From a virus (taxonomy: Duplodnaviria; Caudoviricetes), in IMG/VR virus record IMGVR_UViG_3300037483_000964, positions 1 through 61,392 of that record: a stretch of 61,392 nt of DNA; one strand, given 5' to 3'. The position numbers were made by a program, and so were the translations under genes. Below, in pieces: positions 4,238 through 42,943 of the stretch; positions within the stretch are counted from its first letter, which is position 1; every line of letters begins with the position of its first letter. The notes under the pieces are model-generated. The model was not told the DNA's origin and searched no databases. It saw nothing but the letters and a program-made list of their open reading frames with translations.

Positions 4238-4870
4238 ATGATCCGGTTCACGGCCTACGGGACGCCGGCACCGGCCGGGAGCAAGCGTGGGTTTCCGGTC
4301 CGCGCCAAGGGCGGAAAGATCATGGTCCGGATGACCGACGACAGCAAGCGGGGGAAGCCGTGGCAAGCGGCCGTCCGGGCCGAGGCCGCAGAAGTCATGG
4401 CAGGCGCGCCACTGCTGAACGGCCCGCTGGAAGTCACGGCCACGTTCCACGTCCGGCGTCCCAAGGGCCATTACGGGGTGCGCGGACTCCGGCCCGCTGC
4501 CCCTGGGTGGCCGGCGGTCAAGCCGGACGCCGCGAAACTCTGGCGCGCGGTCGCCGACGCGCTGACCGGCGTGGTCTGGCGTGACGATGCGCAGGTCGTG
4601 GTGGAGCACGTCACGAAACAGTACGGCGAGCCGGAGCGGGTGGACGTTTCGGTGCAGGAGGCGGGGCACGTCAACCGGCTTGAATGCGTCGATCTGGAGC
4701 CCGAGTGGGGCCGTTGTGCATCACTATCCCATCCAAACGATGCGCAATCCCACGGGAAAGCGGGTCCTTCCCATCGAGCAACGATGGCGCAGGCGAAGCC
4801 CGCCCGACGTTTCGGTAGCCAGACTTTTCCACAGAACCCGGGTTTCCGTTTCAAGGACCCGCCGAAATGA
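4238..4870 (+). CDS. rusA: RusA-family Holliday junction resolvase
   Basis: GTPAPAGSKR and KPDAAKLWRAVADALTGVVWRDDAQVV signatures. Confidence 0.9.
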   Translation: MIRFTAYGTPAPAGSKRGFPVRAKGGKIMVRMTDDSKRGKPWQAAVRAEAAEVMAGAPLLNGPLEVTATFHVRRPKGHYGVRGLRPAAPGWPAVKPDAAKLWRAVADALTGVVWRDDAQVVVEHVTKQYGEPERVDVSVQEAGHVNRLECVDLEPEWGRCASLSHPNDAQSHGKAGPSHRATMAQAKPARRFGSQTFPQNPGFRFKDPPK

Positions 4871-5676
4871 CAGGAGCCAGGGCCCACCGCCCGCGCCAGG
4901 CCATCGTCGCCGCGGCCACCGTCCACCGCCGGCTGGACCGGCTCGCCCCGAAGCACCGGACGTGCGTCCGCCGGAGCCGCCACATCGCCGGCGGCGCGCC
5001 CAGCCTGGCGATGATCCGGCCGCTCACCTTCGAGCCGCTCATCGCCCCGGCCCGGGACGTCCTGGGCGGCGGCCCGCACGTCGCGCTCGTGTTGGGCGGC
5101 GCCGCGTCGCTCTGGTCGGACATCCGGGCCGTCGAGGCGCTGATCGGCGCGCACTGGGACACGATCGGCATCGTCATCGCCGTGAACATGGCGGGCGTCT
5201 ACTGGCCCGGCCGGCTCGACCACTGGGTCACGCTTCACCCCGAGTTCTACTTCGCGGGCGGCAACCCGACGCCCCGGACCGGGCCCTGGAAGTCGCTCCG
5301 GCGCGGCAACTCCGACTACTGGGTCTGGACGTTTGTCGGGTCGAAGCACGCGGCGTCCGTGCACCGCACCCTCAGCCATCCGGGCGGCGGTAGTGGGCTC
5401 CTGGCCGTGCACGTCGCGCTCCGGCTCGGCTGCCCGCGCATCGTGCTGGCCGGGATGCCCATCGACTCGGGTGCCCATTTCGACCGGCCCGGGAAGTGGA
5501 CCGCGGCCGACCGATTCCAACCGGAATGGGAAGCGGACGTCCCCAAGCTCGGTGGCCGGGTCCGCTCGATGAGCGGGTGGAGCGCGGGGTTGCTCGGCCG
5601 GCCGACGGCCGAATGGATCCGGGAGGGGATCAGTTTGCGGGGCGAGAAAATAGCGGTTTCTCGACCCGGAAATTGA
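4867..5676 (+). CDS. DUF115/MptE-like Rossmann-fold, putative glycosyltransferase-related protein (paralog 1; true start may be 5011)
   Basis: ALVLGGA, IAVN, DHWVTLHPE, SGLLAVHVALRLGCPRIVLAGMP; paralogous to the 14070 and 14597 ORFs. Confidence 0.6.
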   Translation: MTGARAHRPRQAIVAAATVHRRLDRLAPKHRTCVRRSRHIAGGAPSLAMIRPLTFEPLIAPARDVLGGGPHVALVLGGAASLWSDIRAVEALIGAHWDTIGIVIAVNMAGVYWPGRLDHWVTLHPEFYFAGGNPTPRTGPWKSLRRGNSDYWVWTFVGSKHAASVHRTLSHPGGGSGLLAVHVALRLGCPRIVLAGMPIDSGAHFDRPGKWTAADRFQPEWEADVPKLGGRVRSMSGWSAGLLGRPTAEWIREGISLRGEKIAVSRPGN

Positions 5677-5681
5677 AACGA

Positions 5682-5882
5682 AGTGGCGTGGCAGGGCGAA
5701 GCTTGGCCCGGTGCGGCGTGGCGTGGTGAGGCGCGGCAGGAGTGACAAGGCGAGGCTGGGTGAGTTGGGGCATGGATGGGTCGGGTCGGGTCTGACCAGA
5801 TGCGGTGGAGTGAGGCAGGAGTGACACGGTGTGGCGAGGCCCGGCGGGGTGCGGCGAGGTGCGATGTGTCGCGGCGCGGTCT
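5682..5882 (+). ncRNA. GGY-NN pentamer array 1 (candidate guide-RNA array, 3 segments)
   Basis: Segments of 10, 13 and 11 GGY-NN units separated by GGCAGGAGTGACA(A/C) at 5735-5748 and 5814-5827; intergenic. Confidence 0.8.
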
Positions 5883-5996
5883 GCCTGGTCGAAAGTGAAA
5901 AAGGGTGGGGGCCCTGGACGACCCCCGACCCTGTTGGGAAGCGCGGAGCATGGTGCCCGCGCTGGTTCGGCAACTTCAAGGTAAGGAAGGTATCCC

Positions 5997-6770
5997 ATGG
6001 CAGCAAGCAAGAAGGGCACAGCGGAGTCCGTAGACATCCTCAGGGTGCAGGAGGGCACGATCGCCTTCTGCATCGTCGGCCGCAGCCCGTTCGTCTGCAA
6101 CGCGATGAGCGCCAAGGTCCGACAGGGCCTGCTCAGCCCGGGCCCCAAGAAGGGCACCACGGAGAAGGGCGCGACCCTCAAGCACAACCCGCTCGAGGAG
6201 TACCAGCGGAGCGCGTACCGCTCGGTGGGCGATGCCGCGGAGACGCGCATCCAGTTCCTCGCGGCCGGCTTCAAGCGGGCGATGGCGAACGCTGCGCTGG
6301 AGATCCCGGGCACCAACAAGGCACAGATCGGTCGGCTGTGCTGGGCTGAGGGGATGTACGTCCCGATCTACGGGATCCCGCAGATGTGGATGAGCGTGAC
6401 CAGGAGCGCCGACATGAAGCGGACGCCGGACATCCGGACCCGCGCCATCATCTCCGAATGGGCGTCCCGCGTGACGGTCCGCTACGTCATTCCGAACCTT
6501 CGTGAACAGCCGGTCATCAACCTTATGGCTTCGGCGGGCGTGTTCATCGGCGTCGGCGACGGTCGGCCCGAGAAGGGCGCACTCTCCTTCGGCCAGTTCG
6601 AGGTGGTGGCTGAAGACGACGAGCGGTACCAGCGGATCCTCAAGACGGGTGGCCGCAAGGCGCAGGATGACGCCTTCGAGAATCCGACGTTCTACGATGT
6701 CGAGACGGAAGAGCTGTACGAGTGGTGGATCGCCGACGCCAAGCGGCGTGGCTTCAAGATCGTTGCCTGA
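5997..6770 (+). CDS. Stand-alone RAMP/Cas7-like RNA-binding protein (Vipr-like)
   Basis: N-terminal strand + GRSPFV, central AAGFKRAM helix, C-terminal glycine-rich loop AGVFIGVGDGRPEKGALSFGQFEV; RBS AAGGAAGG; flanked by GGY-NN arrays. Confidence 0.75.
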   Translation: MAASKKGTAESVDILRVQEGTIAFCIVGRSPFVCNAMSAKVRQGLLSPGPKKGTTEKGATLKHNPLEEYQRSAYRSVGDAAETRIQFLAAGFKRAMANAALEIPGTNKAQIGRLCWAEGMYVPIYGIPQMWMSVTRSADMKRTPDIRTRAIISEWASRVTVRYVIPNLREQPVINLMASAGVFIGVGDGRPEKGALSFGQFEVVAEDDERYQRILKTGGRKAQDDAFENPTFYDVETEELYEWWIADAKRRGFKIVA

Positions 6771-6783
6771 TCCCACGAATCCG

Positions 6784-6817
6784 ACCCGGGGCCCCACACG
6801 GTTGCGGGGCCCCGGGT
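6784..6817 (+). promoter_or_regulatory. Strong intergenic stem-loop
   Basis: Perfect 12-bp stem ACCCGGGGCCCC/GGGGCCCCGGGT; no poly-T tail. Confidence 0.55.
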
Positions 6818-6848
6818 TCGGGTTCCGGAAACCTGAAAGGAAGGAAGC

Positions 6849-7322
6849 GTGAACGGAGAAGCGCGAAAGACGAAGATCTACGAACGGCTTCAGGCGTTGG
6901 CGGCCGGCGGCCGCTTGACTGCCGAGGTCGTGCTCGCCGATGCGAAGAAGAAGAACAGCCCGCTGCATGGGGAGTTCGAGTGGGACGATTCAGTGGCGGG
7001 ACGTCGCTATCGTCTCGATCAGGCGCGCTCCATGATCGCATCGGTGAAGGTCTACATCGAGCGGCGGACCATGGTGATCGCGGTCCCGGTTTACACCCGT
7101 GACCCGGACGCCGAAAGCAAAGAGCAGGGCTACCGTTCAACCGCGACGCTCAAGACCGACCGGGAGAGGGCGCGCGATGCGCTCATCTCCGAGGCTGGCC
7201 GGGCTGCTGCGTACATGGGGCGGGTTCGGGCGTTGTCGGTTGCGCTCGACATGGAGGATGAAGTGGACGAGATCATCGGCCGGTTCGCTGCGTTCCGCAT
7301 GCGTGCCGAAGTATCGGCGTGA
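6849..7322 (+). CDS. Conserved phage protein, putative accessory partner of the RAMP-like gene
   Basis: LTAEVVLADAKKKNSPLHGEFEWDDSVAGRRYRLDQARSMI motif; RBS AAGGAAGG; lies between the RAMP-like gene and array 2. Confidence 0.75.
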   Translation: MNGEARKTKIYERLQALAAGGRLTAEVVLADAKKKNSPLHGEFEWDDSVAGRRYRLDQARSMIASVKVYIERRTMVIAVPVYTRDPDAESKEQGYRSTATLKTDRERARDALISEAGRAAAYMGRVRALSVALDMEDEVDEIIGRFAAFRMRAEVSA

Positions 7323-7328
7323 ATTTGT

Positions 7329-7634
7329 AGTGGCGTGGCACGGTCGGGCCGGGGATGGCGAGGTGCGGCCTGGTGCGGTCGGGCATGGTGCGGAGCGGGT
7401 GCGGCGTGGCAGGAGTGACAAGGTCGGGCCCGGAGCGGTGGGGAGCGGTTGGGTTAGGCTTGGCGAGGCCAGATGCGGCGTGGCGGGAATGATAAGGTGC
7501 GACACGGTGCGTTTGGGTGGGGATTGGATTGGCTTGGCCGGGCAAGGCATGCCGGGAGTGACATGGCGAGGCGCGATGAGGTTTGGCCGGGCGCGGCGGG
7601 GCTTGGCGCGGCGCGGCGCGGTATGGCGAGGCGG
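7329..7634 (+). ncRNA. GGY-NN pentamer array 2 (candidate guide-RNA array, 4 segments)
   Basis: Segments of 15, 12, 11 and 13 units; linkers GGCAGGAGTGACAA (7408-7421), GGCGGGAATGATAA (7482-7495), GCCGGGAGTGACAT (7551-7564); same AGTGGCGTGGCA start as array 1. Confidence 0.8.
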
Positions 7635-7657
7635 GCGTCACCTAACGAAAAAGGAAG

Positions 7658-7885
7658 ATGATGGGTGAGGCGAAGCGGAAGCAGGAGGCGGCACCGGCCG
7701 CCGACTATTCGCCCGGCGTCGTAAAGACGAAGGCCGGCGGCTTCTACTGGATCGACGCCGGAGGTCGGGTCTTCCGGATGCTCCGTGGCAGCCGGGTCCG
7801 GGAGCCGGCGGTCATCGCCGACGTGCAGGCGGTCGCGAAGATGCCGCCGACGGAACCGCCGCGAGTCCAGTTGGTCGAGCGGTGA
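7658..7885 (+). CDS. Hypothetical protein
   Basis: RBS AAGGA; translationally coupled to the next gene. Confidence 0.6.
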   Translation: MMGEAKRKQEAAPAADYSPGVVKTKAGGFYWIDAGGRVFRMLRGSRVREPAVIADVQAVAKMPPTEPPRVQLVER

Positions 7886-8523
7886 TCGACGTGGCCTGCG
7901 TGCTCCGGTCCGGCGGCGCGTACGACCCGCGGTGGGTCCACCGGCTCCGCGAGGCCGTGGCCCGGTACCTGCCGATCGAGCACCGCTTCGTCTGCCTGTC
8001 GGACGTGCCGGTCGGCGGCGACATCGTCCGCTACGCGCTGCCGGCCGGCTGGCGCGGCTGGTGGGCAAAGCAGGCGCTCTACCAACCCGGGCTCTTTCCG
8101 GGCCGCGTCCTCTACCTCGACCTGGACTCGCTCATCGTCGGCGACCTCTCGGAGCTGGCCGCGTACAACGGGCTCCGCGCCGTGCTTTCGGACTTCAACC
8201 AGCCGGCCATGATCGGGACCGGGATGATGATGTGGTGGGCCGACGCGATGGAGGACGTCTTCCGCCACTTCATAGTCGACCCGGGGAAGGTGATGGCGGC
8301 GTACCCGCGGCGGAGCGACCATTTCACGACGCAGGCGATGCGCACGCCGGCCGACCGGATCCAGTCGCTCTACCCGGGCCAGGTTGTCAGCTCGAAGCGG
8401 CACTGCCGGCAGGGCCCGCCGGCGGGCGCCCGGGTCATCTGCATGCACGGCCGGCCGCGGCTCACCGACCTCGCGCCGGATCACTGGATGCGTCTTACTT
8501 GGGAAGGGAGAGTTTACGCCTGA
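7882..8523 (+). CDS. GT-A fold glycosyltransferase (GT8-like)
   Basis: FVCLSD, GWWAK, VLYLDLDSLIVGDL (DxD), C-terminal MHGRPR. Confidence 0.8.
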   Translation: MIDVACVLRSGGAYDPRWVHRLREAVARYLPIEHRFVCLSDVPVGGDIVRYALPAGWRGWWAKQALYQPGLFPGRVLYLDLDSLIVGDLSELAAYNGLRAVLSDFNQPAMIGTGMMMWWADAMEDVFRHFIVDPGKVMAAYPRRSDHFTTQAMRTPADRIQSLYPGQVVSSKRHCRQGPPAGARVICMHGRPRLTDLAPDHWMRLTWEGRVYA

Positions 8524-9065
8524 TGGCGGGATTCTGGGGGAACGCGGTCTACCGCCGGCTCAACCCGGCCGTGCCGCAGCGGATGGCGGAGATCGGCGTG
8601 TTCGACGGCCAGAACTCGGGCTGGCTGCTCGCGCGCTGCCCGCTGCTCACGCTCTACATGATCGACCAGTGGAAGGCGTACCACGACAGTAGCCAGCCGG
8701 ACACGGTGCACAACCCCGGGAAGTGGGACCGCGTGCGCCGGATGGCGCTGGCGCGGACGGACTTCGCCGGGGCCCGCCGCATCGTGCTGCACCTGACGTC
8801 GCTGGAGGCCGCCGCGCAGATCGGCGCCGGCTTGCTCGACCTCGCGTTCATCGACGCCAACCACTCGCTGCCGTTCGTGGCCCGCGACATCGCTGCGTAC
8901 TGGCCGAAGGTGAAGCCCGGCGGCTGGCTCGCGGGCCACGACTACGAGCGGAAGGAGCCGCGCATCTACGGCGTCTGGCAGGCCGTGAACGAGTTCGCGG
9001 CGGCGCAGAAGCTGTCGCTCGAGGTGGACGAGGACGCCACCTGGTTCATCCGGAGGCCGACATGA
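8523..9065 (+). CDS. Class I SAM-dependent methyltransferase (Methyltransf_24-like)
   Basis: AEIGVFDGQNS, LDLAFIDANHS, KVKPGGWLAGHDY. Confidence 0.9.
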   Translation: MAGFWGNAVYRRLNPAVPQRMAEIGVFDGQNSGWLLARCPLLTLYMIDQWKAYHDSSQPDTVHNPGKWDRVRRMALARTDFAGARRIVLHLTSLEAAAQIGAGLLDLAFIDANHSLPFVARDIAAYWPKVKPGGWLAGHDYERKEPRIYGVWQAVNEFAAAQKLSLEVDEDATWFIRRPT

Positions 9066-9250
9066 ATCCTCTTCTTTCTTTTGGTGGGTTGCTGTTATCC
9101 GTGGCCATCGTACTCGTGAGCCTTTCCGTGCGGGACTTGCGTCGGAGGCTATCGTGCATGGACGCTCGCGTCCGGAAACTCGAACCGTGTAGGTTGTGCG
9201 GGCGCACGATGTGCAATCACGGGGACCGGCACTACCCGGCCAAGCCATGA
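9062..9250 (+). CDS. Small membrane-anchored protein
   Basis: N-terminal hydrophobic helix, C-terminal CxxC; ATGA-coupled on both sides. Confidence 0.55.
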   Translation: MNPLLSFGGLLLSVAIVLVSLSVRDLRRRLSCMDARVRKLEPCRLCGRTMCNHGDRHYPAKP

Positions 9251-9930
9251 CGCTTCCCGCCATCGTCGCCGATTACGCCACCCTGATCCGGGACCGCGTC
9301 CACTACGCGCAGGCCAATTACGGTGACGGCGAGTGGGCGTGTATGCTCGGACAGAGCGGCAAGAACTGCAACGGCGAGGTCTACCACCCGTATCTCGCGA
9401 GTCAGCTCCGGGAGACGCTCTACCGGCCCGTGGGCCAGTGGTGCGGTACGAATCCCGGGAAGCGGCTCCGCGTCGAGGCGGATCACTGGATCACCACCCG
9501 GAAGGTCGATGTGGAGTGGGCCGACAAGGAGGTCCTCGTCCGGGCGAACATCGAGGGGCGGCTCGGTTCCTGGCTCGAGGCCGTGCGGACGCGCCGGGTC
9601 GTGCTTGTCGGGCCGGCGCACCTGGCGGCGCTGAAACCAGAGGTGATCGGCGCGTTGACGTTCATCGGCGTCGCCCCGAACACGGCATGGGAGAATGCCG
9701 TCTCAACCAGCCGATCGGTGCTCCGCGCTGTCGCACCCGGTGACCTCGTGCTCTTCGCGGCCGGCATGGGGAGCAACCTCATGATCCACCGCCTCTGGCC
9801 GGAGCTTCGGGGTCAGGTGACGCTTCACGACGTGGGTGCGTTGCTCGACCCCTACGTCGGCGTCTGGTCTCGGAACCCGTACCGGGACGCCGCATGGCAG
9901 CGCGACGTCCTGCCGCTGAACCTCGCATGA
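9247..9930 (+). CDS. GT-D fold (DUF1792-like) glycosyltransferase, paralog 1
   Basis: NYGDGEW, VLVGP, LFAAGMGS, DVGALLDPY; close paralog at 13027. Confidence 0.7.
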   Translation: MTLPAIVADYATLIRDRVHYAQANYGDGEWACMLGQSGKNCNGEVYHPYLASQLRETLYRPVGQWCGTNPGKRLRVEADHWITTRKVDVEWADKEVLVRANIEGRLGSWLEAVRTRRVVLVGPAHLAALKPEVIGALTFIGVAPNTAWENAVSTSRSVLRAVAPGDLVLFAAGMGSNLMIHRLWPELRGQVTLHDVGALLDPYVGVWSRNPYRDAAWQRDVLPLNLA

Positions 9931-10520
9931 AGCGCTGGTTCGATCTGCTCGTCGAGTGCCGCTACCCGGCGGACAAGACCTTCCACCTGGGCCAGCATCG
10001 CGGGACGGTCGGTTGGGACCATCCTGACGTTCGCGCCCACTTCGAGTCGAAGCACCGGATCGCGGCCGCGCTGCAACCCCGGCGCATCATCGAGATCGGC
10101 GTCCGGTGCGGCTACTCGGCGTGGGCGATGCTCTCGGCCGTGCCCCGGGCGTCCTACCTCGGCATCGACAACCGGGACCCGGCGTACGGTGACGGCGCCG
10201 CGTTCGCGGCGCACGCCGCCGGGCTGCTCGAGGGTTTCGCCGGCGCGCGGTTCTTGAACGCGAACTCGCGGGAGTTGGTCGATCTGCCGCCGCCCGTTGC
10301 GGACCTCGTCCACGTGGATGGCGACCACAGTTTTGAGGGCGCGCAGCACGACATCGAGCTCGCGCTCCGGAGCGGCGCCCGGTGGGTCCTGATCGATGAC
10401 ACCGACTATCTCGATCTCGTCCGGTCCGCTGCGACTTCCGCGGCCCGCGGCCGGCTCGCGTTCGACCTCCGGGAGCCGCTCCGGGGCGCCGTACTGATCT
10501 GGAATGGGAGTGAGGGATGA
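9927..10520 (+). CDS. Class I SAM-dependent methyltransferase (Methyltransf_24-like)
   Basis: IEIGVRCGYS, YLGID, DLVHVDGDHS, VLIDD. Confidence 0.85.
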   Translation: MKRWFDLLVECRYPADKTFHLGQHRGTVGWDHPDVRAHFESKHRIAAALQPRRIIEIGVRCGYSAWAMLSAVPRASYLGIDNRDPAYGDGAAFAAHAAGLLEGFAGARFLNANSRELVDLPPPVADLVHVDGDHSFEGAQHDIELALRSGARWVLIDDTDYLDLVRSAATSAARGRLAFDLREPLRGAVLIWNGSEG

Positions 10521-10816
10521 GCGATTCCGACGAAGCGAAGGCGGGAAAGAAGGATGACGACCGGGTGGTTGTGGGCGGGTTCATCTTTAGTATCACAGAG
10601 TTCCAGGACGAGGCGCGGGTGACGATCGAACTCAAGTTCTCCGGAGGGGATTCGATCCGGTTCGTGGAGGGGGGTTCGCTCCGGAGAGTCGAGGTTTCCG
10701 AATACCTGCGGAACCTTGCTCCCTCTGACTATATCGAGGTTACCATGCGGTGGGTGGATGACTTCGAGCTTGAAGGCCCGGACTCCTGGTTCATCGAGCC
10801 CTCGCCGAAGGGCTGA
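10517..10816 (+). CDS. Hypothetical acidic protein
   Basis: ATGA coupling; protein-like ORF. Confidence 0.55.
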   Translation: MSDSDEAKAGKKDDDRVVVGGFIFSITEFQDEARVTIELKFSGGDSIRFVEGGSLRRVEVSEYLRNLAPSDYIEVTMRWVDDFELEGPDSWFIEPSPKG

Positions 10817-10819
10817 GCC

Positions 10820-11620
10820 ATGAACGTCATCCTTCCATTCCGCGGCGAGCTCGGGATGAAGCTCTGGTGGCACGCGCCAGCCACGTTCGCGGTTGCCAGC
10901 CCGAAGGTGATCTACTGCGAGGAAGGCGAGGAGGCGCTCTATCCGGGCGCCGAACGGTGGATCCCCGTCGCCCGGAACGAGGATGGCCGCCGCCGGAATC
11001 ACTACCACCGGGACTCCGAGTTCGTCGGCGCCGTGGAGTTGGTAGCCCGGGCGCGCTTCGGCGCGAGCGCCAAGTACCTGAAGCCCGACCAGAAGTGGCC
11101 ACGCAAGCGGTTCGCCCCCGTTCCGCACGAGACAGTCGAAGTCGACTGCGACGTCGTCGTCTGCCCCCGGAAACGGAACTACGGTGCCGGCAAGAACTGG
11201 GACGAGTGGCCGGCCCTCACGGCACGGCTGACAGCCGAGGGGCTCCGGGTGTTCGCCGGCGGTGCGGCGGACTCGAGCTACGATGTGCCGTGCGAGAAAG
11301 CCTGGGACCACGAGCGGAACCTGGACGCGACGATCGCGGCCATGCACTCCGCCCGGGTCGTGGTCGCGACCGATGCCGGGCTTGCGCACCTCGCGGTCCT
11401 CTGCGGCCGGCCACTCGTCATGGTCACCTACGGCGCCGGGCTCGTAGCGCCGGGTAGCGTCGATGACGAGAACGGCCGGCCGATGGAGCCCTGCTACTGG
11501 CCGGTCAAGATGGAGCGGTACCGGGAGGAGAACCATCTCGGATCGCCGATCACGCTGGTGCATCATGGGTGGGAAGAGCCGGACCGTGTTCTACGTGAAA
11601 CGCTGGAGGCGGTGAAATGA
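10820..11620 (+). CDS. GT9 (heptosyltransferase-like, GT-B) glycosyltransferase
   Basis: GELG, KNWDEWPAL, VVATDAGLAHLAVLCGRPLV. Confidence 0.8.
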   Translation: MNVILPFRGELGMKLWWHAPATFAVASPKVIYCEEGEEALYPGAERWIPVARNEDGRRRNHYHRDSEFVGAVELVARARFGASAKYLKPDQKWPRKRFAPVPHETVEVDCDVVVCPRKRNYGAGKNWDEWPALTARLTAEGLRVFAGGAADSSYDVPCEKAWDHERNLDATIAAMHSARVVVATDAGLAHLAVLCGRPLVMVTYGAGLVAPGSVDDENGRPMEPCYWPVKMERYREENHLGSPITLVHHGWEEPDRVLRETLEAVK

Positions 11621-19423: not shown

Positions 19424-21029
19424 CCCCTTCCGCGTTGCGGCGCTCGACTCCGGCTTCGTCTCCGATGGTGGTGGCTCGTCCGCGTACATGGGCGCCATCG
19501 CGAACCGGCTCACTGCCGACTGGGCGTTCGCGGCCATCGAGTCCGCCGACCAGGAGATTCGGGGCGGGATCCGGACGCTCCGGGCTCGGGCCCGGGAACT
19601 CCACCGCAACAACGAGCTCGCGGCTTCCTACGTGCAGCTCATTGAGGACCAGGAGATCGGGCACGAGGGGATCCGGCTGCAGGCGTACGTGAAGCGTCCC
19701 GGCGGACTCCTCGACATGGGCATCAACGAGCGCATCGAGGAAGCCTGGGCCGAGTGGTGCGAGAAGCAGAACTGCACGGTCGATGGCCGCCTGCCTTTCG
19801 CCGAGGTCCTCGCCCTGCTTGCTGGCAACCGTGCGATCGACGGCGAATACCTGGTGCGGATGCTGCCGACGATGGAGAACCGGTTCGGCTTCGCGCTCCA
19901 GATTTTCGACCCGGACCAACTCGATGTCGAGTACAACCGTGAGCCGGGCAACGGCAAGAACGAGATCCGGATGGGCGTCGAGATCGACGCGTTCCGGCGG
20001 CCGGTCGCCTACTGGGTCTGGGATCACCACCCGTCCGAATACGGAGTCCGTGGTCAGCGCCAGGTCCGGATCCCGGCCGATCAGATTCTCCACAATTTCC
20101 GGGCCGGTCCCCGCGTCAATGCGACGCGCGGCGTGACCTGGTTCCACCCGGCGTTGTACAAGCTCAAGATGCTGGCCGGCTACGAGGAGGGCGAGGTCGT
20201 CGGGATGCGGCTCACGGCGACCGCCGGCGGCTTCTTCCAGACCGTACCGGAAGCGGTCCGCGATACGAACGCGCCGAAGACGGATCAGGACTTCAACTTC
20301 AGCGCCGAGCCCGGTGCCTATCCGAAACTCCCGCCCGGCTGGACCTACATCGAACGCGACCCGAAGCACCCGACGGACGCCTACAACGAGTTTCACAAGG
20401 CGATGATTCGCGGCATCTGCGCGGGCCTCGGTGTCACCTACACGTCGGTCACGCACGATCTCTCTGACGTGAATTACGGCTCGATGCGGGGCGGGTTGCT
20501 CGGCGAGCGTGACATGTGGCGCCGCTGGCAGTGGATCGACATCCGGCACTTCTGTCAGCCCGTCTATCGCAACTGGTTCCGCTACGCCGAGCTCACGGGC
20601 GCGCTCAAGCTCCCCGACCGGAACCGCGCCCGCTGGAGCCGTCACCGCTGGCAGCCGCGCGGGTGGCCGTGGATCGACCCGCTGAAGGATGTGCAGGCGG
20701 CGGCGCTCGAGGTGCGGCTCGGTGTGAACAGCCTGACCCGGATCTGCGCCGAGCGGGGGCTCGACTTCGAGGAAGTGCTCTCGGACCGGGCCATGGAGAT
20801 CGGGCTCGCCCGGGAGCTGGGCGTCGACATTTCGACCGAAATATCGAAGTCGGCGACGGAGACGACCCCGGAGCGCGAACCGGAAGAGCCTGAGCCTGAT
20901 GCGCGCTGGCGGTGGCAGGACGAAGAGGATGACGAGGCGCCGCTGCTCCGGCGCGAATCGCGGCTGTTCGCGCGGATCCTCGCCCGACGGGAGCTCGCCG
21001 CGCTGAACGGAAACGGGGGGACGCCATGA
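19416..21029 (+). CDS. Portal protein (lambda gpB family)
   Basis: LRARARELHRNN, IRMGVEIDAFRRPVAYW, DLSDVNYGSMR, WPWIDPLKDVQA. Confidence 0.95.
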   Translation: MRNPFRVAALDSGFVSDGGGSSAYMGAIANRLTADWAFAAIESADQEIRGGIRTLRARARELHRNNELAASYVQLIEDQEIGHEGIRLQAYVKRPGGLLDMGINERIEEAWAEWCEKQNCTVDGRLPFAEVLALLAGNRAIDGEYLVRMLPTMENRFGFALQIFDPDQLDVEYNREPGNGKNEIRMGVEIDAFRRPVAYWVWDHHPSEYGVRGQRQVRIPADQILHNFRAGPRVNATRGVTWFHPALYKLKMLAGYEEGEVVGMRLTATAGGFFQTVPEAVRDTNAPKTDQDFNFSAEPGAYPKLPPGWTYIERDPKHPTDAYNEFHKAMIRGICAGLGVTYTSVTHDLSDVNYGSMRGGLLGERDMWRRWQWIDIRHFCQPVYRNWFRYAELTGALKLPDRNRARWSRHRWQPRGWPWIDPLKDVQAAALEVRLGVNSLTRICAERGLDFEEVLSDRAMEIGLARELGVDISTEISKSATETTPEREPEEPEPDARWRWQDEEDDEAPLLRRESRLFARILARRELAALNGNGGTP

Positions 21030-23662
21030 CGGAGAGTCGCCGCATCCTGAACGCGTTCGGGTCGGCCGCCTGGGCGATGGAAGAATCGAAGCTCGAGGCG
21101 ATCTGCGCGTTCCTGGAGTTCCGCGCCAAGGGCGGCCAGCTCTCACGCGAGGAAGTGAAGGCGGTGACCGCTGCCCGCGCCGGCCAGATCAAAGCCGGTG
21201 GCGGTGTCGTCGTAATCCCGATCGTCGGCGTGATCACGCAGCGCGCAAACCTGCTGTCGGAGTACTCGGGCGGCACGTCCACGGAAAAGCTCGCCGCGCA
21301 GATCGACCAGGCGCTCGCGTCGCCAGATATCAGTGCCATCGTCTTCGACATCGACAGCCCGGGCGGCGACGTCTCGGGAGTCCCGGAGATCGCGGCCAAG
21401 ATCTACGCCGCGCGGGGGAAGAAACGAACCATCGCCGTCGTCAATTCTGCGATGCACTCAGCCGCCTACTGGATCGGCTCGGCGGCGGAAGAGATCGCGA
21501 TCACGCCCTCCGGCATGGCGGGCTCGATCGGTGTGCTCTGGGTCCACACCGAGTACTCCGAGATGGAAGCGGCGCTCGGCATCAAGACCACGATCCTCCG
21601 AGCGGGCAAGTACAAGGCCGAAGGCAATCCCGTCGAGCCACTCTCCGACGGCGCCCGCGACCGGATGCAGGCCATCGTCGACGACTACTACGAGGACTTC
21701 GTCGCCGCGGTCGCCCGTCACCGCGGCACCACGGCGGAAGCGGTCCGGACGGGCTACGCGCAGGGCTCGATCCTCACGGCGAAGCGGGCCGTCGCAGAGG
21801 GCCTTGCCGACCGGGTCGCGACGCTTGAGGCCGTGCTCGCCGAGCTTGGCATCCAGCCCGCCACGCTCTCAATGGCCCGCGCGAAGGCGGCCGAAGAGCT
21901 GGCGCGCGAGATGGCCGCCGCCGCCGCGGCGTCGGATACCGGACACGCGATCGCGGTCTCCGTCGAGCTGGCGGGCGAAGAGGCATGCGCAGCTGCTGCG
22001 TGTCGCATGGCGCCGCTCGCCGTCCCCGCCGTGGCGCTCATGCCCGTCGCCGAGCATCACGAAATGCCGGATCCGCCGATGGAGCCGGACATGCCACCGG
22101 ACGGCGAAGACCACGACGAGGACGAGGACGAAGAGGAAACGGCCGCGGGAGATCCCGTGCCGGAGGACGACACGGCCGATGCGGTTCATGGGGGCGACCG
22201 CCCGGCAACTGCTGTGCCCTCAAACACCGACGCGGCCCAAGCCGCAAGGGAGGCAAGGATGGCCGTTGACACGGCTGCGGTCCCGGGTGGGGCCGATTCG
22301 GGCGTGCTGGTCGCGGAGCGCGACCGGGTGCGCGGCATCATGGCGCTCGCGAAGGATCCCAAGTGGAATGTCTCGCCCGAACGCGCGGAGGCCTGGATCG
22401 CGAACGGGGTGTCCGAAGCGGAGGCCTCCCGCGAAATCCTGCGAGAGCAGACGAACGCGTGGGGCAAGCCGATCGGCGCACCGGCGCCGGCCGAAGTGCT
22501 CGACTGGGCCCACGAGGACCAGCAGCGCTTCTCCATCGTGCGTGCGATCAACGCGGCGGCCGACAACGACTGGTCGAACGCCAAGTTCGAGCGGGACGTC
22601 ATGGCCGAGACGCAGAAGAAGCTCGGCTACCAGTCCAGGGTCGGGAGCAATGGCCCGGGCGGCGGGAAGATCCGCGGCAATTCCATCATCATCCCGACGG
22701 CGCTGTCCGCGCTGCCGGCGGAGTACGTGGAGCGGGCCCGGGCGACCGCGCGGGAGATGGGCAGGCCGTTCGAAATGCCGCGGCCCCGCGGCGCGCTCAC
22801 CTCGGCCGGCGCGACGGCCGGCGCCGAGCTCGTGTTCACGGAGCCCGGATCGTTCATCGAGATGCTCCGCAACCGGATGGTGACGACCCAGATGGGCGCC
22901 ACTTTCCTGCCGGGCCTTCAGGGCAACGTCGACTTCCCGCGCCAGACCGCGGCGGGGACGTTCAGCTGGAGGGCGGAGAACCCGGGCACCAACGTGTCGT
23001 TGACGGACCTGACGACCGGGTCCGTGGAGCTCCGGCCGAACGACGGCACGTCCGCGACGTCCTACTCGCGGCGACTGCTCGCGCAGTCGGTGATCAACGT
23101 CGAGATGCTGGTCCGCGATGACCTGACCTCGATCGCCGCCATCGGGCTGGACCTGGCGGCGTTGCACGGCGCGGGCGGCAGCGAGCCGACCGGGCTGTAC
23201 TCGCAGTCGGGCGTGAACACGGTGGCCTTCAACGGCGTCGTGACGTACCCGAAGATCGTCGAGATGGAGACGGACATCGTCGCGAGCAACGCGGACCTCT
23301 GGCGGATGGGCTACGTGACCACGCCCGAGATCCGGGGTGCCGCGAAGACCACGCAGAAGTTCGCCAGCACGAACGGCGACCCCATCTGGACGGGGAGCGT
23401 GCTGGAAGGCGACATGAACGGCTACCGGTCGATGGCCTCCAACCAGGCCAGCAAGACGCTCGGCTCGGGCGCCGAACACGCGATCTTCTTCGGCGCGTGG
23501 CAGCATCTGCTCGTCGGTGAGTGGGGCGCGATGGAGCTGATCGTGGACCCGTACACGCTGGCGCGGCAGGGGCTCATCATCGTCGTGATCTTCCTGATCG
23601 CGGACATCGCGGTGCGCTACCCGGCGGCGTTCTGTGTCGGGACGAACCTGCAGCTGACGTAA
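21026..23662 (+). CDS. Fused S49 prohead protease - acidic linker - HK97-fold major capsid protein
   Basis: DIDSPGGDV, SAAYWIGS, GSIGV (S49); capsid part with FSIVRAINA, GNVDFPRQT, ELIVDPYT; in-frame internal ATG at 22259 with AGGGAGG. Confidence 0.9.
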   Translation: MTESRRILNAFGSAAWAMEESKLEAICAFLEFRAKGGQLSREEVKAVTAARAGQIKAGGGVVVIPIVGVITQRANLLSEYSGGTSTEKLAAQIDQALASPDISAIVFDIDSPGGDVSGVPEIAAKIYAARGKKRTIAVVNSAMHSAAYWIGSAAEEIAITPSGMAGSIGVLWVHTEYSEMEAALGIKTTILRAGKYKAEGNPVEPLSDGARDRMQAIVDDYYEDFVAAVARHRGTTAEAVRTGYAQGSILTAKRAVAEGLADRVATLEAVLAELGIQPATLSMARAKAAEELAREMAAAAAASDTGHAIAVSVELAGEEACAAAACRMAPLAVPAVALMPVAEHHEMPDPPMEPDMPPDGEDHDEDEDEEETAAGDPVPEDDTADAVHGGDRPATAVPSNTDAAQAAREARMAVDTAAVPGGADSGVLVAERDRVRGIMALAKDPKWNVSPERAEAWIANGVSEAEASREILREQTNAWGKPIGAPAPAEVLDWAHEDQQRFSIVRAINAAADNDWSNAKFERDVMAETQKKLGYQSRVGSNGPGGGKIRGNSIIIPTALSALPAEYVERARATAREMGRPFEMPRPRGALTSAGATAGAELVFTEPGSFIEMLRNRMVTTQMGATFLPGLQGNVDFPRQTAAGTFSWRAENPGTNVSLTDLTTGSVELRPNDGTSATSYSRRLLAQSVINVEMLVRDDLTSIAAIGLDLAALHGAGGSEPTGLYSQSGVNTVAFNGVVTYPKIVEMETDIVASNADLWRMGYVTTPEIRGAAKTTQKFASTNGDPIWTGSVLEGDMNGYRSMASNQASKTLGSGAEHAIFFGAWQHLLVGEWGAMELIVDPYTLARQGLIIVVIFLIADIAVRYPAAFCVGTNLQLT

Positions 23663-27041: not shown

Positions 27042-27441
27042 GGCGACCTTCGATCTCGACATCGCGGGAATCGAGCGACTTCTGGCGTCGCAGCTGGTCC
27101 CGATCGTGAGCGAGGGCGCGCGCATCCTCCGTGATGCGTGGAAGGGGAAGATCCAGCTGCAGGAGGAACCCTCCGACCCGGGCGAGCCGCCGGCCTCGCC
27201 CACCCGCAAGTACTACAACTCGGTCCAGTCGACCTCGGCCCGCGTCTACTCGGATGCCGTGGTTGCGTACGCCTTCTCGCCGGCGGAGTGGTCGGACGGC
27301 GACGCGCTCGCGCTCGCGCTCGATGAGGGCCGGGACCGGATCCGGCCGCGGCCGCACCTGGACGCCGCGATCGAGGCCGCGCGACGCGAGATCGATGCGC
27401 TGGTCGCGCGCACTGAAGCTACCCTGGGCGAGGGCTCCTGA
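27028..27441 (+). CDS. HK97 gp10-like neck/tail completion protein
   Basis: PSDPGEPPASPT and GRDRIRPRPHL motifs. Confidence 0.65.
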   Translation: MPKDEATFDLDIAGIERLLASQLVPIVSEGARILRDAWKGKIQLQEEPSDPGEPPASPTRKYYNSVQSTSARVYSDAVVAYAFSPAEWSDGDALALALDEGRDRIRPRPHLDAAIEAARREIDALVARTEATLGEGS

Positions 27442-30400
27442 TGGCACAGGGGAAGGGCTTCCGGATCCCGGTTCGCGCCGCGCTGGAGCAGTTCCAGCGC
27501 GACATGAAGGACATGAAGGAGATCGGCCGCCGCGCGGGGACCGAGACGGGCGACGCCATCCTGAAGGAGATGAAGGCGGAGTTCCAACGGCGCCAGGGCG
27601 CGCTTCGGGAAGCCGTCGCGAAGGGCGTCTTCGACAAGGAGGCCGCCAAGCGGATCAGCCGCGACTTCGCGAAGGAGTTCAATGTCGGGATCCTGGAAGC
27701 GCTGAAGCAGATGCGGAAGGCCGGCAAGGACACGACGGACGAGTTCAGCCGGCTGCAACGTTCGCTCCGGAACGTGTCCACCGAGGGCGGCCGTTCGGCC
27801 CGTGACTTCAACCGGAACTGGATCCAGCAGGTGCAGGGCATTCCGGGATGGGTGCGAGGCACCTTCGCCGGCGGGATGATCGCCGCGTTCACGTACGTCG
27901 CCGGCCAGGTGCTCCGCGTCTTCCAGCGCATGGCGCGCGGCATCCGGGACACGTTGGCGCTGGGCGGCCAGGTCCAGGAGCAGCGGGGCATTTTCGAGCA
28001 GCTCACCACGGGCCGGGGCATCGACCCGACCGCCGCGCTCGAGGCCGTGCGGCGCGGCACCCGCGGCATGATCTCCGACCTCGAGCTCTTCCAGCGCGTG
28101 AACTTCGCGCTGAACGCCGGTCTCCAGCTCAACACCCAGCAGATGCAGGACCTGGCCACCGTCTCCCGCCGGCTCGGCGAGGCGGTCGGCAAAGAGGCGG
28201 GCCCGGCATGGGAGACCTTCGTCGAGGCGCTCTCGAAGGGCCAGGAGCGGGGGCTCAAGCAGTTCGGGCTGATCACGGACCTCTCCAGCGCGATGGCCGC
28301 CTGGGAGAAGCAGACGGGAAGGAACCGGAAGGAGCTCTCCGACCTCGAGCAGAAACAGATCTTCGTCAACGCCGCGCTCGCCGAGGGGCTCGAGAAGGTC
28401 CGGGCGCTCGGAGCCGATGACCTCGACGCAGCCGACCGGCTGGACCAGATCGCCGCGGCGTGGGCGAACCTGAAGAATCAGGCCGCGGAAGCGATCGTCC
28501 AGGCGCCTGCGATCGCGCGTCTGCTCGATGGGATTGGCACGAACGCGGAACAATCGGCGGCGCGTATCCAAGACCTCGCCGACCGCCTGGGCGCCCTGGT
28601 GCAGCTCATCGCCGGCTCGCCCGTGCTCCGGGTGCTTTTCGGCATCACGAAGGTGGGGCTCAAGCTCGAAGGTCGTGCCCTGGGCTCCGTACTCGGCATC
28701 GATTCCGATGCGTTCGAGACGGAGCTCGCGCGGATCCGGGCGGCCCGCCAGCAGGGGGAGCAACTCGCGCAGACCCGGGCCGAGATCGTCAAGCTGGTCA
28801 CGGACCTCGAGGCCCTCGCCGCACGGGGCAACAAGGCCGCGCTCACGGCGCTTCAGCAGATCGCGGACTCCGAAAAGGAGGGTGCCGCTGCGGCCGCCGC
28901 CGCGCTCGGCCGCCTGTCGGACCGGAAGACCGGCGGGGCCGAGGATCCCGAGAAGGCAAAGCGGCTCGCCGAACAGCGAGCGCGGCTGCAGGAACGGCTC
29001 GCTACCGAGCTGGCGAAGCTCACGGCGTCTGCCGTCGATGAGGCCCTGCTCCAGGTCGAGAAGTTCGAGCGGGAGTGGATTGCCGCATTCGGCCGGATGG
29101 ACGACGCGACCGCCCGGGCTTTCGCCCGGATCCGCGACTCGATTGAGATGGAGGGCCGGGCGACCGAGATCCGGGAACAGATCGCGGCGTACGGCAAGGC
29201 GCACCTCGCGGCCTCGACGGACGTTCTACCGCTGCTCGCCGGACTCCGCCGTCTGATCGACGGGCTCGAGACCGAGCGCGGCGCGATGTCGGACACGAGC
29301 AAGCAGTACGCGACCTGGACTGGCCTCATCGAGGACGCCGAGAAGGCGATGGTCGGACTCGCGGGCACCACGGAGAAGCTGGGCAAGGCGGAATCCGACC
29401 TGACGACAGATGAGAAGGATTCCGACGACGAGCGGATCCGGCGGCTCCGGGACAGCGCGCGCACGATCGGGGAGAATATCCACGCCGTGCTGGGGCTCGC
29501 GGAAGCGTTCGGCGCGCTGGACTCCGAGGCGGCCGCATCGCTCGCGACCATCGCGGACCTGGGCCTCGCGATCGGCCGGCTCGCCGGTGGTGACCCATCC
29601 GCACTGCCAGCCGTCATCGCCGGCGCTGGTCAGGTGCTCGTCGGTATGCTCGGCGAAAGTGCCGCGGATCGGGAGCGGAAAGAAGCGCTCCGCCGAAACA
29701 CGCAGGCGCTCGACCGACTTCGGAAGGCGTACGAGGAAGTGGCCCTTACCGGCGCGAATCTGTCGAACATCAGAGCGGCGCTCTGGGAGGGACGGGAGGC
29801 GTTCAAGTTTCGGAGCACTGACAAGGCGGTGCAGCGGGACCTGAAAGCGGGCCTCCAGAGGATCCTGGCGGACTATGGCTTGACGCTCGCCGACCTCGAT
29901 GCGCTCGCGGAGGAACTCGGCATCACGATCCGGGACAAGGAGGGCCGGCTGTTGGGCGAGGGCCTCCAGGCGCTCTACGAGGCCGCCGGCATCGCGGCCG
30001 AGAATCTGCTCAAGTTCGCCAACACCGCGGAGGGCATCCGCCAGAAGCGGGACTTCGAGGGCCGGGTCTTCGACATCGAGGACACGCCCGCGCGGCGCGC
30101 GCAGATCGAGTTGGACATCCTCGCCGAGAAGGCGCCGGAGCTGTTCAAGAAGTATTTCGGCGGGCTGGACCCGAACACGGAGGCCGGCCGGCGGCAGATC
30201 GAGATCCAGAGCCGGGCGCTCGCCCGGGCCATCATGGCCGGGGACATCGACCCCGCGCTGCTCGGCGGGCTCACGGGCGACGACCTGAAGGAGTTCGTGC
30301 TGAACCTCGACGAGGCGCTCGATGCCTTCGCCGCCGCGGCCGGGACTGGCGAATCGGTGACGTCCGGCTTCGACGTTTCACGAACCATCACGGAGGTCAC

Positions 30401-30737
30401 CGGCAGCCGGATCTTCGGCGTGCTCACCACGATCGCGTACGACGTCCACCATATCGCGACGCGCTACGGCGTGGACCAGATGGTACCCATCTCGGCCGGG
30501 GCCGCAGCGCCGGCGATCGCCGCCGGCGCCGGGACCGTGATCAACCTGGGCGGGATCGACGTCGTGATCAACGGCGCGTCGCTGCCGGCCGTGACGGATC
30601 CCGCGTCGGGCAGGCGCACGGGCGCCGCGATCGGGCAGGGCATCTTCGACGGCTTCCAGGACGCGGTCGACCGCTCTGCCGGCGAGCGGACGCTGGCCTA
30701 CCGGCGGGCCCGCGGGAAGCAGGCGGTGATCCAATGA
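27441..30737 (+). CDS. Tail tape measure protein
   Basis: 1098 aa, Ala/Leu-rich, helical; canonical position. Confidence 0.85.
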   Translation: MAQGKGFRIPVRAALEQFQRDMKDMKEIGRRAGTETGDAILKEMKAEFQRRQGALREAVAKGVFDKEAAKRISRDFAKEFNVGILEALKQMRKAGKDTTDEFSRLQRSLRNVSTEGGRSARDFNRNWIQQVQGIPGWVRGTFAGGMIAAFTYVAGQVLRVFQRMARGIRDTLALGGQVQEQRGIFEQLTTGRGIDPTAALEAVRRGTRGMISDLELFQRVNFALNAGLQLNTQQMQDLATVSRRLGEAVGKEAGPAWETFVEALSKGQERGLKQFGLITDLSSAMAAWEKQTGRNRKELSDLEQKQIFVNAALAEGLEKVRALGADDLDAADRLDQIAAAWANLKNQAAEAIVQAPAIARLLDGIGTNAEQSAARIQDLADRLGALVQLIAGSPVLRVLFGITKVGLKLEGRALGSVLGIDSDAFETELARIRAARQQGEQLAQTRAEIVKLVTDLEALAARGNKAALTALQQIADSEKEGAAAAAAALGRLSDRKTGGAEDPEKAKRLAEQRARLQERLATELAKLTASAVDEALLQVEKFEREWIAAFGRMDDATARAFARIRDSIEMEGRATEIREQIAAYGKAHLAASTDVLPLLAGLRRLIDGLETERGAMSDTSKQYATWTGLIEDAEKAMVGLAGTTEKLGKAESDLTTDEKDSDDERIRRLRDSARTIGENIHAVLGLAEAFGALDSEAAASLATIADLGLAIGRLAGGDPSALPAVIAGAGQVLVGMLGESAADRERKEALRRNTQALDRLRKAYEEVALTGANLSNIRAALWEGREAFKFRSTDKAVQRDLKAGLQRILADYGLTLADLDALAEELGITIRDKEGRLLGEGLQALYEAAGIAAENLLKFANTAEGIRQKRDFEGRVFDIEDTPARRAQIELDILAEKAPELFKKYFGGLDPNTEAGRRQIEIQSRALARAIMAGDIDPALLGGLTGDDLKEFVLNLDEALDAFAAAAGTGESVTSGFDVSRTITEVTGSRIFGVLTTIAYDVHHIATRYGVDQMVPISAGAAAPAIAAGAGTVINLGGIDVVINGASLPAVTDPASGRRTGAAIGQGIFDGFQDAVDRSAGERTLAYRRARGKQAVIQ

Positions 30738-42371: not shown

Positions 42372-42943
42372 TGACGATCCTGGAGCGGCCGTCGCCGAAC
42401 CGGAGCGCGCGCTCGACGTCGAAGCTGGACGTCATCGTGCTGCACTCGACGTCGGGCGCGATGCCGGGTTGTCTGGAGTGGCTGACCACGAAGCACGCGG
42501 ATCCGGCCAAGAACGTGTCCGCGCACTACCTGATCGACCGCGAGGGCCACGTCTACCGGCTGGTCCCCGAGACCGAGAAGGCGTGGCACGCGGGCAAGAG
42601 CGCCTACCGCGGCCGTGGCGACGTCAACCAGTTCTCCATCGGCATCGAGCTGGAGAACGCGGCGCCGGACACGACGCCCTTCCCCGACGCGCAGTACGCC
42701 GTGCTCGCGGAGCTGGTCGCCGACATCCGGAGTCGGCACGGTCCCCTGCCCTGCGTCGGCCATGAGCTGGTCCGGGTGCCGGGCGGGAGCAAGGTCTGCC
42801 CGGGCGCGGCCTTCGACTACAGCCGCGTCCCGCAGCCGGAGGTGAAGGTCCGCGACGTCCGCTGGCAGGCGCCGGTCCGGGCGCTGCTGCACGACCCGGA
42901 CGAGACGTTGGGGGCGTTTCTCGAGCGGATGCTCACGACGTGA
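42371..42943 (+). CDS. Endolysin, N-acetylmuramoyl-L-alanine amidase (Amidase_2)
   Basis: IVLHST, SAHYLIDREG, AWHAG, SIGIELE, GH...KVCPG. Confidence 0.95.
   Translation: MTILERPSPNRSARSTSKLDVIVLHSTSGAMPGCLEWLTTKHADPAKNVSAHYLIDREGHVYRLVPETEKAWHAGKSAYRGRGDVNQFSIGIELENAAPDTTPFPDAQYAVLAELVADIRSRHGPLPCVGHELVRVPGGSKVCPGAAFDYSRVPQPEVKVRDVRWQAPVRALLHDPDETLGAFLERMLTT

Follow-up and report, generated by a model that had tools for sequence, protein, structure and literature searches.

A probable and divergent VIPR locus in a tailed phage from sediment

VIPR (short for Viral Interference Programmable Repeat) systems are CRISPR-like systems of RNA-guided DNA silencing that were first described in bioRxiv preprints in 2026 (10.64898/2026.04.26.720920; 10.64898/2026.04.26.720927; 10.64898/2026.10.15.759431). 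Known VIPR loci are phage-borne and comprise a RAMP protein of ~20 kDa (Vipr), an accessory gene (vap), and vrRNAs made of 9-16 YNNGG repeats and a 3' tail (10.64898/2026.04.26.720920). We analyzed a 61,392-nt stretch of viral DNA (IMG/VR record IMGVR_UViG_3300037483_000964; hereafter the window) and conclude that positions 5683-7632 very probably constitute a VIPR locus of a tailed phage, with vipr, one accessory gene and seven vrRNAs in two same-strand arrays, acting by the published mechanism. The locus is a further, fairly divergent example of VIPR, a kind of system already known from the 2026 preprints.

In the systems described so far, Vipr protomers, one to each repeat, build a helical filament in which GGY is hidden and NN is presented (10.64898/2026.04.26.720920; 10.64898/2026.04.26.720927). 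Targets emerge only if a single base is left out between successive NN pairs, and this base is "overwhelmingly" at the wobble position of a codon; the natural targets are satellites and rival prophages, and the controls contained no self-targets at ≥80% NN match. The mechanism was confirmed by in vitro binding and by repression of green fluorescent protein. In the reference system, the arrays give rise to transcripts that co-purify with the protein, and reprogramming NN alone redirects silencing. Seven types are distinguished, which vary in repeat consensus, in guide architecture and in accessory enzymes, and which include "staggered" arrays whose guides overlap by 1 nt (10.64898/2026.04.26.720920). 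The residues that hold GGY in the Vipr protein of Escherichia phage SUSP1 are H17, R138, D177, W178 and R179, and the filaments can pair with single-stranded RNA (ssRNA) too (10.64898/2026.04.26.720927). Vipr is a minimal RAMP with a single RRM, a thumb and a G-loop, and has also been proposed to be older than the RAMPs of CRISPR systems.

The window contains two arrays of NNGGY units with a period of 5 bases, found on the + strand only, by reading the sequence and by a phase-aware scan: array 1 at 5683-5890 and array 2 at 7330-7632. An earlier note, made from the sequence alone, had reported repeats in both stretches, and that observation is real. Within a unit, positions 3-4 are GG and the fifth base is mostly C or T. 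The units are grouped into seven tracts of 10-15 units each, three in array 1 and four in array 2. Array 1 lies upstream of vipr and array 2 downstream of the accessory gene, both on the gene strand, in the following order:

5683..5737, + strand: vrRNA repeat tract A1.1, 11 NNGGY units, 10 with GG; begins 7 bases after the stop of the gene at 4867-5676
5734..5749, + strand: separator copy 1, the conserved 16-mer GGCAGGAGTGACAAGG; holds the GG/CAGG junction, where the period falls to 4 once
5747..5816, + strand: vrRNA repeat tract A1.2, 14 units, several of them degenerate (without GG)
5813..5828, + strand: separator copy 2, 1 base unlike copy 1
5826..5890, + strand: vrRNA repeat tract A1.3, 7 clean units, then ~6 degenerate ones
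5997..6770, + strand: vipr, encoding a 257-amino-acid RAMP (Cas7-like) protein
6784..6817, + strand: inverted repeat of 12 bp, G+C-rich, followed by a T-containing run; just past the vipr stop codon, read by eye
6849..7322, + strand: accessory gene, 157 amino acids, phrog_15946
7330..7410, + strand: vrRNA repeat tract A2.1, 14 clean units, then 2 further units after a 1-base slip at 7400; begins 8 bases past the accessory stop codon
7407..7422, + strand: separator copy 3, identical to copy 1
7420..7484, + strand: vrRNA repeat tract A2.2, 13 units
7482..7497, + strand: separator copy 4, a variant with a GGGAATGATA core
7494..7548, + strand: vrRNA repeat tract A2.3, 11 units
7551..7566, + strand: separator copy 5, a variant with a GGGAGTGACA core
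7563..7632, + strand: vrRNA repeat tract A2.4, 14 units; ends 25 bases short of the next start codon (7658)

The tracts are parted by the five copies of the 16-mer (GGCAGGAGTGACAAGG and its variants, at 5734, 5813, 7407, 7482 and 7551), while the last tract of each array has no exact copy. Each separator opens with the GG/CAGG junction, followed by an additional, non-repeat decamer with the core GAGTGAC. An identical 12-mer opens both arrays, 5-8 bases past the stop codon of the gene upstream. The phase-aware scan revealed no comparable runs elsewhere in the 61,392 bases, where other runs reached only 5-6 GG units. Array 2 folded no better than shuffled sequences (z = -1.1; 15 of 100 shuffles folded as well), as expected for a single strand that is bound by protein. 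The inverted repeat at 6784..6817 is a possible terminator or processing hairpin; it was missed by the consensus terminator scan, which has a loop limit of 8.

Six of the seven NN strings listed in the earlier note recur exactly at a spacing of NN+3 (from 5688, 5752, 5831, 7425, 7499 and 7568). The seventh, A2.1, is correct as a list of dinucleotides, but is not an exact period-5 string, because of the 1-base register slip at 7400. A hand count agreed with the note on the 85 dinucleotides, 48 of which start with G, and on the single occurrence of TA; under a stricter parse that admits only GG-bearing units, there are 76 units, of which 36 start with G and one is TA.

The array architecture is far beyond chance. 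It is seen again next to vipr homologues in a large number of unrelated contigs of viruses. Scanning IMG/VR with the pattern (GGNNN)11GG alone yielded at least 132 loci, with long flanks in only 80 of the 132. Most of these are true NNGGY arrays with variable NN, on contigs with 40-73% G+C, and a few are simple repeats or poly-G. A homologue of the 257-residue protein, detected with a family profile, is encoded in 55 of the 132 listed loci. In the 59 pattern-found loci that carry vipr or the accessory gene, some of which are overlapping pieces of one contig, the gene shares the strand of the arrays and lies directly against them in every case (59/59). Conversely, when loci were fetched by the protein, 18 of 25 had co-oriented arrays and none (0/25) had an array on the opposite strand; the remaining 7 all had a downstream flank of ≤520 bases. 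The array detector recovered three of the four published vrRNAs of SUSP1, whose locus occupies ~27.6-29.3 kb of the minus strand. Among the units of 347 arrays, the fifth base was C in 72% and T in 20%, NN was spread across all 16 dinucleotides at 3-10% each, and tracts of 12-15 units were the commonest. The spacing of the GG/CAGG junctions in the related loci was 5n-1 bases in 89 of 140 cases, implying that one unit is 1 base shorter at each boundary, and tract lengths varied from 44 to 64 or more bases.

The 257-residue protein was modeled with AlphaFold (AF2), giving a predicted local distance difference test (pLDDT) score of 83.6 and a predicted template modeling (pTM) score of 0.81. Foldseek returned 31 matches at E ≤ 1e-3 with TM-scores of 0.3-0.5, and all of the matches listed, down to E 2.2e-3, were chains of the Cas7 family (Csm3, Cmr4, Cas7-11 and type VII Cas7). 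An alignment that does not depend on Foldseek (VIA-align wide) gave the same picture: the best 25 rows were CRISPR RAMPs, nearly all Cas7-type, with a best match at Z 8.0 and a root-mean-square deviation of 3.8 over 152 residues. The family comprises at least 979 protein clusters from metagenomes and has no Pfam domain; in species genomes, vipr was found at one locus, with 39% identity. The family profile matched SUSP1 Vipr (KT454805.2, 28474-29061, minus strand, 195 residues) in hhalign with a probability of 95.2% and E 2.8e-8, over 51 columns that span the thumb and the G-loop. In this alignment, the GGY contacts R138, D177 and R179 of SUSP1 correspond to R149, D188 and R190 of the window family, of which R149 and R190 are invariant and D188 is at least 90% conserved among 42 family members. 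W178 aligns to Gly189, and H17 falls outside the aligned stretch, so that three of the four alignable GGY-contact residues are kept. By the hhalign register, the window protein has ~55 additional helical residues at its C-terminus. On the predicted model, the gene product is a RAMP with a Cas7-like fold, homologous to the reference Vipr, and a protomer the size of Cas7 on every five single-stranded bases would fit the period of the array.

The 157-residue gene recurs beside vipr in 15 related loci, usually just downstream of it. Searches with its product returned nothing below E 0.38 with phmmer against the PDB and no matches at E ≤ 1e-3 with Foldseek, and VIA-align wide produced only generic helical-hairpin matches to residues 104-157 (Z ≤ 8.3), with no informative fold.

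Two results that require no known target are new here: the composition of NN follows that of codon positions 1-2, and the differences between related arrays fall mostly in NN. In 2,677 units, with boundary units dropped, NN frequencies correlated with codon positions 1-2 of 70 vipr genes at r = 0.88, compared to -0.12 for positions 2-3, 0.19 for positions 3-1 and 0.08 for the reverse complement. A set of 3,115 units compared to 57 neighboring vipr genes gave Pearson r values of 0.84 (positions 1-2), -0.20 (2-3), 0.06 (3-1) and 0.34 (all dinucleotides), and log-likelihoods per unit of -2.761 for codon positions 1-2, -2.781 for genomic dinucleotides and -2.925 for the other codon phases. The window alone, with 76 units, gave r = 0.73 for positions 1-2. 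A two-component fit to the 2,677 units assigned ~76% of them to the coding sense (bootstrap 70-82%).

We also compared 60 pairs of related 8-unit segments from different loci, in which 167 of 179 differences (93%) were in NN, 7 in GG and 5 in Y, with the proviso that overlapping segments count one change repeatedly and that the detector partly fixes GG, though not Y. Two loci, L135 and L136, share some tracts exactly or with changes in NN only, and differ in tract number (10 versus 6), one tract being partly duplicated within L135. In a second sediment metagenome that contains near-identical DNA, the sole change in array 1 is a T>C at a Y position. L135 (4250-4850) and L136 (1380-1830), which lie on 90%-identical contigs, have a 4-base GGTC linker between guides and a longer linker that contains GTCAC, the reverse complement of the GTGAC in the separator of the window. 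At locus L140 (2308-2937), where Vipr is 50% identical, the units are mostly NNGGA instead of NNGGC/T; here, the protein and the repeat consensus may be changing together.

The earlier note had proposed that only NN is used for targeting, that the targets are coding sequences in which the wobble base is skipped, and that synonymous escape is blunted as a result. This is the published VIPR mechanism, and the proposal is supported by the experiments on the reference systems, by the solid membership of the locus in the same family and by the target-free NN composition; for the guides of this phage it is a prediction. In the phage's own genome, gaps of 0, 1, 2 and 3 bases were each compared to 100 shuffles; at gap 1 the best NN match was 69-77% (z -0.13 to 1.41), and none of the seven strings exceeded its shuffles. 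A match of 69-77% falls below the 80% threshold and hence leaves no self-target, as in the self controls of the preprint, and as the note had judged by eye. Among the 28 tests of gaps 0-3 there were two outliers, neither at gap 1: A2.1 at gap 2 matched 24 of 30 bases at + 29530, inside the 1098-amino-acid gene at 27441-30737 (z = 4.3, 0 of 100 shuffles as good), and A2.4 at gap 3 matched 20 of 26 (z = 3.0). Both were read as chance, because the A2.1 string spans the register slip and neither gap is the functional one; we take the match at 29530 as chance in a repetitive, G+C-rich gene. When 338 guide runs, drawn from all of the loci, were compared to 0.93 Mb of unmasked viral DNA on both strands, no gap was in excess (matches of ≥17/20 versus a reversed-order control: gap 0, 71/59; gap 1, 90/79; gap 2, 91/76; gap 3, 63/60). 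The size of this database is far from sufficient, and it does not represent the mobilome of the host.

The locus most resembles VIPR type II, as found in SUSP1 and a Pseudomonas fulva prophage. As in that type, a small, phage-borne RAMP gene is followed by one accessory gene, and YNNGG/NNGGY guide arrays lie upstream and downstream on the same strand, with 9-16 pentamers per guide; GGY is conserved and NN hypervariable, the thumb Arg and the G-loop Asp and Arg are kept, and there are no self-targets. The differences from SUSP1 include the size of Vipr (257 residues here, compared to 195) and an accessory protein without sequence relation to vap1. The 5n-1 junction spacing of the related loci, and the same junction at the start of the window separators, resemble the staggered VIPR arrays as presented in the legend to fig. 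S18 of the preprint. In the window, however, the junction is followed by the additional decamer, and the published architecture is only a candidate for its arrays.

The Cas7 filaments of class 1 CRISPR systems (Csm3, Cmr4, Csf2, Cas7-11) share the RAMP fold, the assembly of one protomer per short RNA segment, and a periodic break in guide-target pairing. Unlike them, the arrays have a period of 5 with two pairing bases rather than a period of 6 with five, the guide is itself a tandem repeat, and the system is encoded by the phage and not by the host. The repeats are 5-base units and not CRISPR direct repeats of 23-47 bases, and a Pfam and PHROG scan of 31 window proteins detected none of the CRISPR-Cas families Cas1, 2, 5, 6, 8, 10 and 11. 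A more distant parallel is provided by TRAP, which binds ~11 triplets parted by 2-3 spacer bases, with one subunit of the oligomeric protein per repeat; its spacer bases are not informational, and it forms a closed ring rather than a helical filament. The arrays share with TRAP sites the repetition of a conserved triplet and a two-base spacer, read by an oligomeric protein, but the protein folds are unrelated, and none of the neighboring proteins matched a Pfam family, TrpBP included. A TRAP-like ring protein as the reader of the arrays was ruled out by the varying tract lengths (44-64+ bases) and by the lack of such a protein in the window.

Several observations weigh against a VIPR locus that acts by the published mechanism. 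The source papers are, all three, preprints. The alignment covers no more than 51 columns of the 195-residue reference protein, a Gly occupies the place of W178, the Trp that in SUSP1 stacks on the second G, and the accessory protein bears no likeness to SUSP1 vap1 (hhalign probability 0.2%). The vrRNAs of SUSP1 have a hairpin/pseudoknot 3' tail of ~35 bases and a leader between guides, whereas the guides in the window are arranged head to tail, with a 10-16-base separator that has no predicted structure. Neither the phage's own genome nor the 0.93 Mb from other viral loci yielded a target for any of the seven guides. Finally, the codon-like signal in NN resides mostly in the two single-base marginals, and the residual dinucleotide signal is nearer to the general genomic bias (0.87) than to codon positions 1-2 (0.71). 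Since the residual signal tracks genomic dinucleotide bias, a constraint at the RNA level could mimic part of the codon-like composition.

We considered the possibility that the locus does encode a VIPR-type ribonucleoprotein, but one whose divergent clade follows a different guide-reading rule or acts on another substrate, for example by skipping some other number of bases, by targeting RNA, or by serving a purpose other than the silencing of rival phages. Compared to the reference, the protein has 62 more residues, and it aligns only in the thumb and G-loop, the Trp that stacks on G2 is replaced, the accessory gene is unrelated and the structured tail absent, and one-skip targets were not found in the sequences searched. 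Furthermore, the seven published types vary in repeat consensus and accessory enzymes, and Vipr filaments can, according to the cryo-EM preprint, pair with ssRNA too. We nevertheless regard such a departure as unlikely: the composition of NN follows codon positions 1-2 and no other phase, as a codon-phased reading of two bases out of three predicts, the contacts to G1, G2 (thumb Arg) and Y are conserved, and the target searches were of too small a scale to weigh against the one-skip rule.

It is considerably less likely still that the repeats are a mere assembly scaffold or a sponge for a RAMP-like or host RNA-binding protein, with NN as unconstrained filler. Such filler could account for the near-uniform use of the 16 dinucleotides (3-10% each), for arrays that evolve by duplication and loss of whole tracts, like ordinary tandem repeats, and for the failure to find targets in the phage genome and the 0.93 Mb. 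Yet unconstrained NN should drift to the genomic composition, and codon positions 1-2 fit better (-2.761 versus -2.781); in the reference system, moreover, the preprint reports that silencing is redirected by reprogramming NN alone. A DNA-level feature that makes no guide RNA, such as a G-quadruplex or R-loop at a replication origin or microsatellite filler made by slippage, can practically be dismissed, in spite of a location between replication and recombination genes (990-2879, 4238-4870) and late genes and a strongly positive GC skew over the arrays, because slippage yields identical units whereas here NN differs in every unit and GGY is kept, because the arrays are tied to one protein family and always to its coding strand in phages of 40-73% G+C, and because the arrays of the reference system yield RNA that co-purifies with the protein.

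Two other candidates, which like the TRAP and the G-quadruplex or R-loop readings had been considered before the fold result was obtained, were rejected. One is a C-rich Rho-loading site on the antisense strand. The other is translation of the arrays as a 5-residue repeat: open reading frames (ORFs) cross the arrays, but the constraint on a 5-base unit makes no coding sense.

That the arrays are transcribed and processed, that filaments assemble, that one base is skipped, that DNA is the target and that rival phages are silenced is, for this locus, inferred from the preprints. By this analogy, Vipr protomers would polymerize along each vrRNA, one per pentamer, sequestering each GGY and presenting the two variable bases. 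The NN pairs would anneal to a DNA strand, passing over one base after each two, and the filament would bind double-stranded DNA and repress transcription of a competing mobile element. A coding-sense share of ~76% of the NN units would mean that the coding strand is the one mostly copied into guides, which would then pair with the template strand; no report of a guide strand bias was found in the accessible portions of the VIPR preprints. Tentatively, the clade might be a VIPR type yet to be characterized, with a larger Vipr that has a C-terminal helical extension and a Gly in place of the Trp, a new accessory protein, tail-less guides arranged head to tail, and a preference for guides that copy the coding strand, although we hold this to be a possibility rather than a probability.

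Distant members of the clade, in Mycobacterium and Gordonia phages, carry arrays too. Homologues of the 257-residue protein (26-27% identical) were found by tblastn in 32 records of cultured actinophages, 25 of them Mycobacterium phages, and all are annotated as "hypothetical protein". In the two records examined, Mycobacterium phage Quico (NC_028751.1, 1106-1346) and Gordonia phage ODay (MW534375.1, 2127-2269), the gene adjoins co-oriented, staggered NNGGC arrays. The Quico module sits between an anti-repressor gene and a gene for a Xis-domain protein; the host strain for Quico and its relatives is M. smegmatis mc2 155.

The record of the phage, which the window covers in full, is 61,392 nt long with a G+C content of 68%; the phage is of sediment origin and has nearly all of its genes on the + strand. 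The DNA is viral, encoding small and large terminase subunits, portal, a protease-capsid fusion, RusA, primase-helicase and a serine integrase, all on one strand. By Pfam and PHROG assignments, the gene order runs from the primase-helicase and RusA, through the arrays around their two genes, to glycosyl- and methyltransferases, then terminase, portal and the protease-capsid fusion, and finally SbcCD, ParB and the serine integrase. The genes ahead of the locus are:

990-2879: primase-helicase
4238-4870: RusA
4867-5676, + strand: gene upstream of array 1

The search of IMG/VR for close relatives gave none for the primase-helicase and one for the large terminase; the nearest relatives of the terminase reside in Alphaproteobacteria. 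A blastn search with 4800-8600 against 50,697 GenBank phage records gave no match, and no relatives of the genes at 3408, 4867, 7658, 7882 and 8723 were present in the other array loci. Rfam at gathering thresholds had no matches in the whole window, and hence no hammerhead ribozymes between guides at that threshold. Consensus scans found no promoters and two terminator-like sites, compared to 1.5 expected. The GC skew over the arrays is strongly positive.

A 75-residue ORF at 7658-7885 begins 25 bases past the last guide and has a third-position G+C of 0.88, without a Pfam or PHROG match. Between the VIPR locus and the terminase, the region 7882-11620 encodes a phrog_1962 glycosyltransferase, a Methyltransf_24 protein and a GT9-like protein; these sugar- and methyl-transfer genes may serve in DNA or surface modification. 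The protease-capsid fusion is a single 878-residue ORF at 21026-23662, in which an S49/ClpP-type head maturation protease is joined to an HK97-type major capsid protein. Further downstream are a gene for a patatin-like phospholipase and an SbcD/SbcC-like nuclease pair (42940-43899 and 49451-53618), and the G+C content reaches 77% in the region 52001-53000.

VIPR is a very recently described RNA-guided system with a non-contiguous guide code. The present locus extends it to a high-G+C sediment phage, and its divergent protein, different accessory gene and more compact guides bear on how guides are processed and on how general the one-skip rule is. The analyses of NN composition and NN variation need no known target and can be used for any VIPR clade whose host is unknown. 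The cultured carriers, Mycobacterium phage Quico and its relatives and Gordonia phage ODay, provide laboratory systems for this clade.

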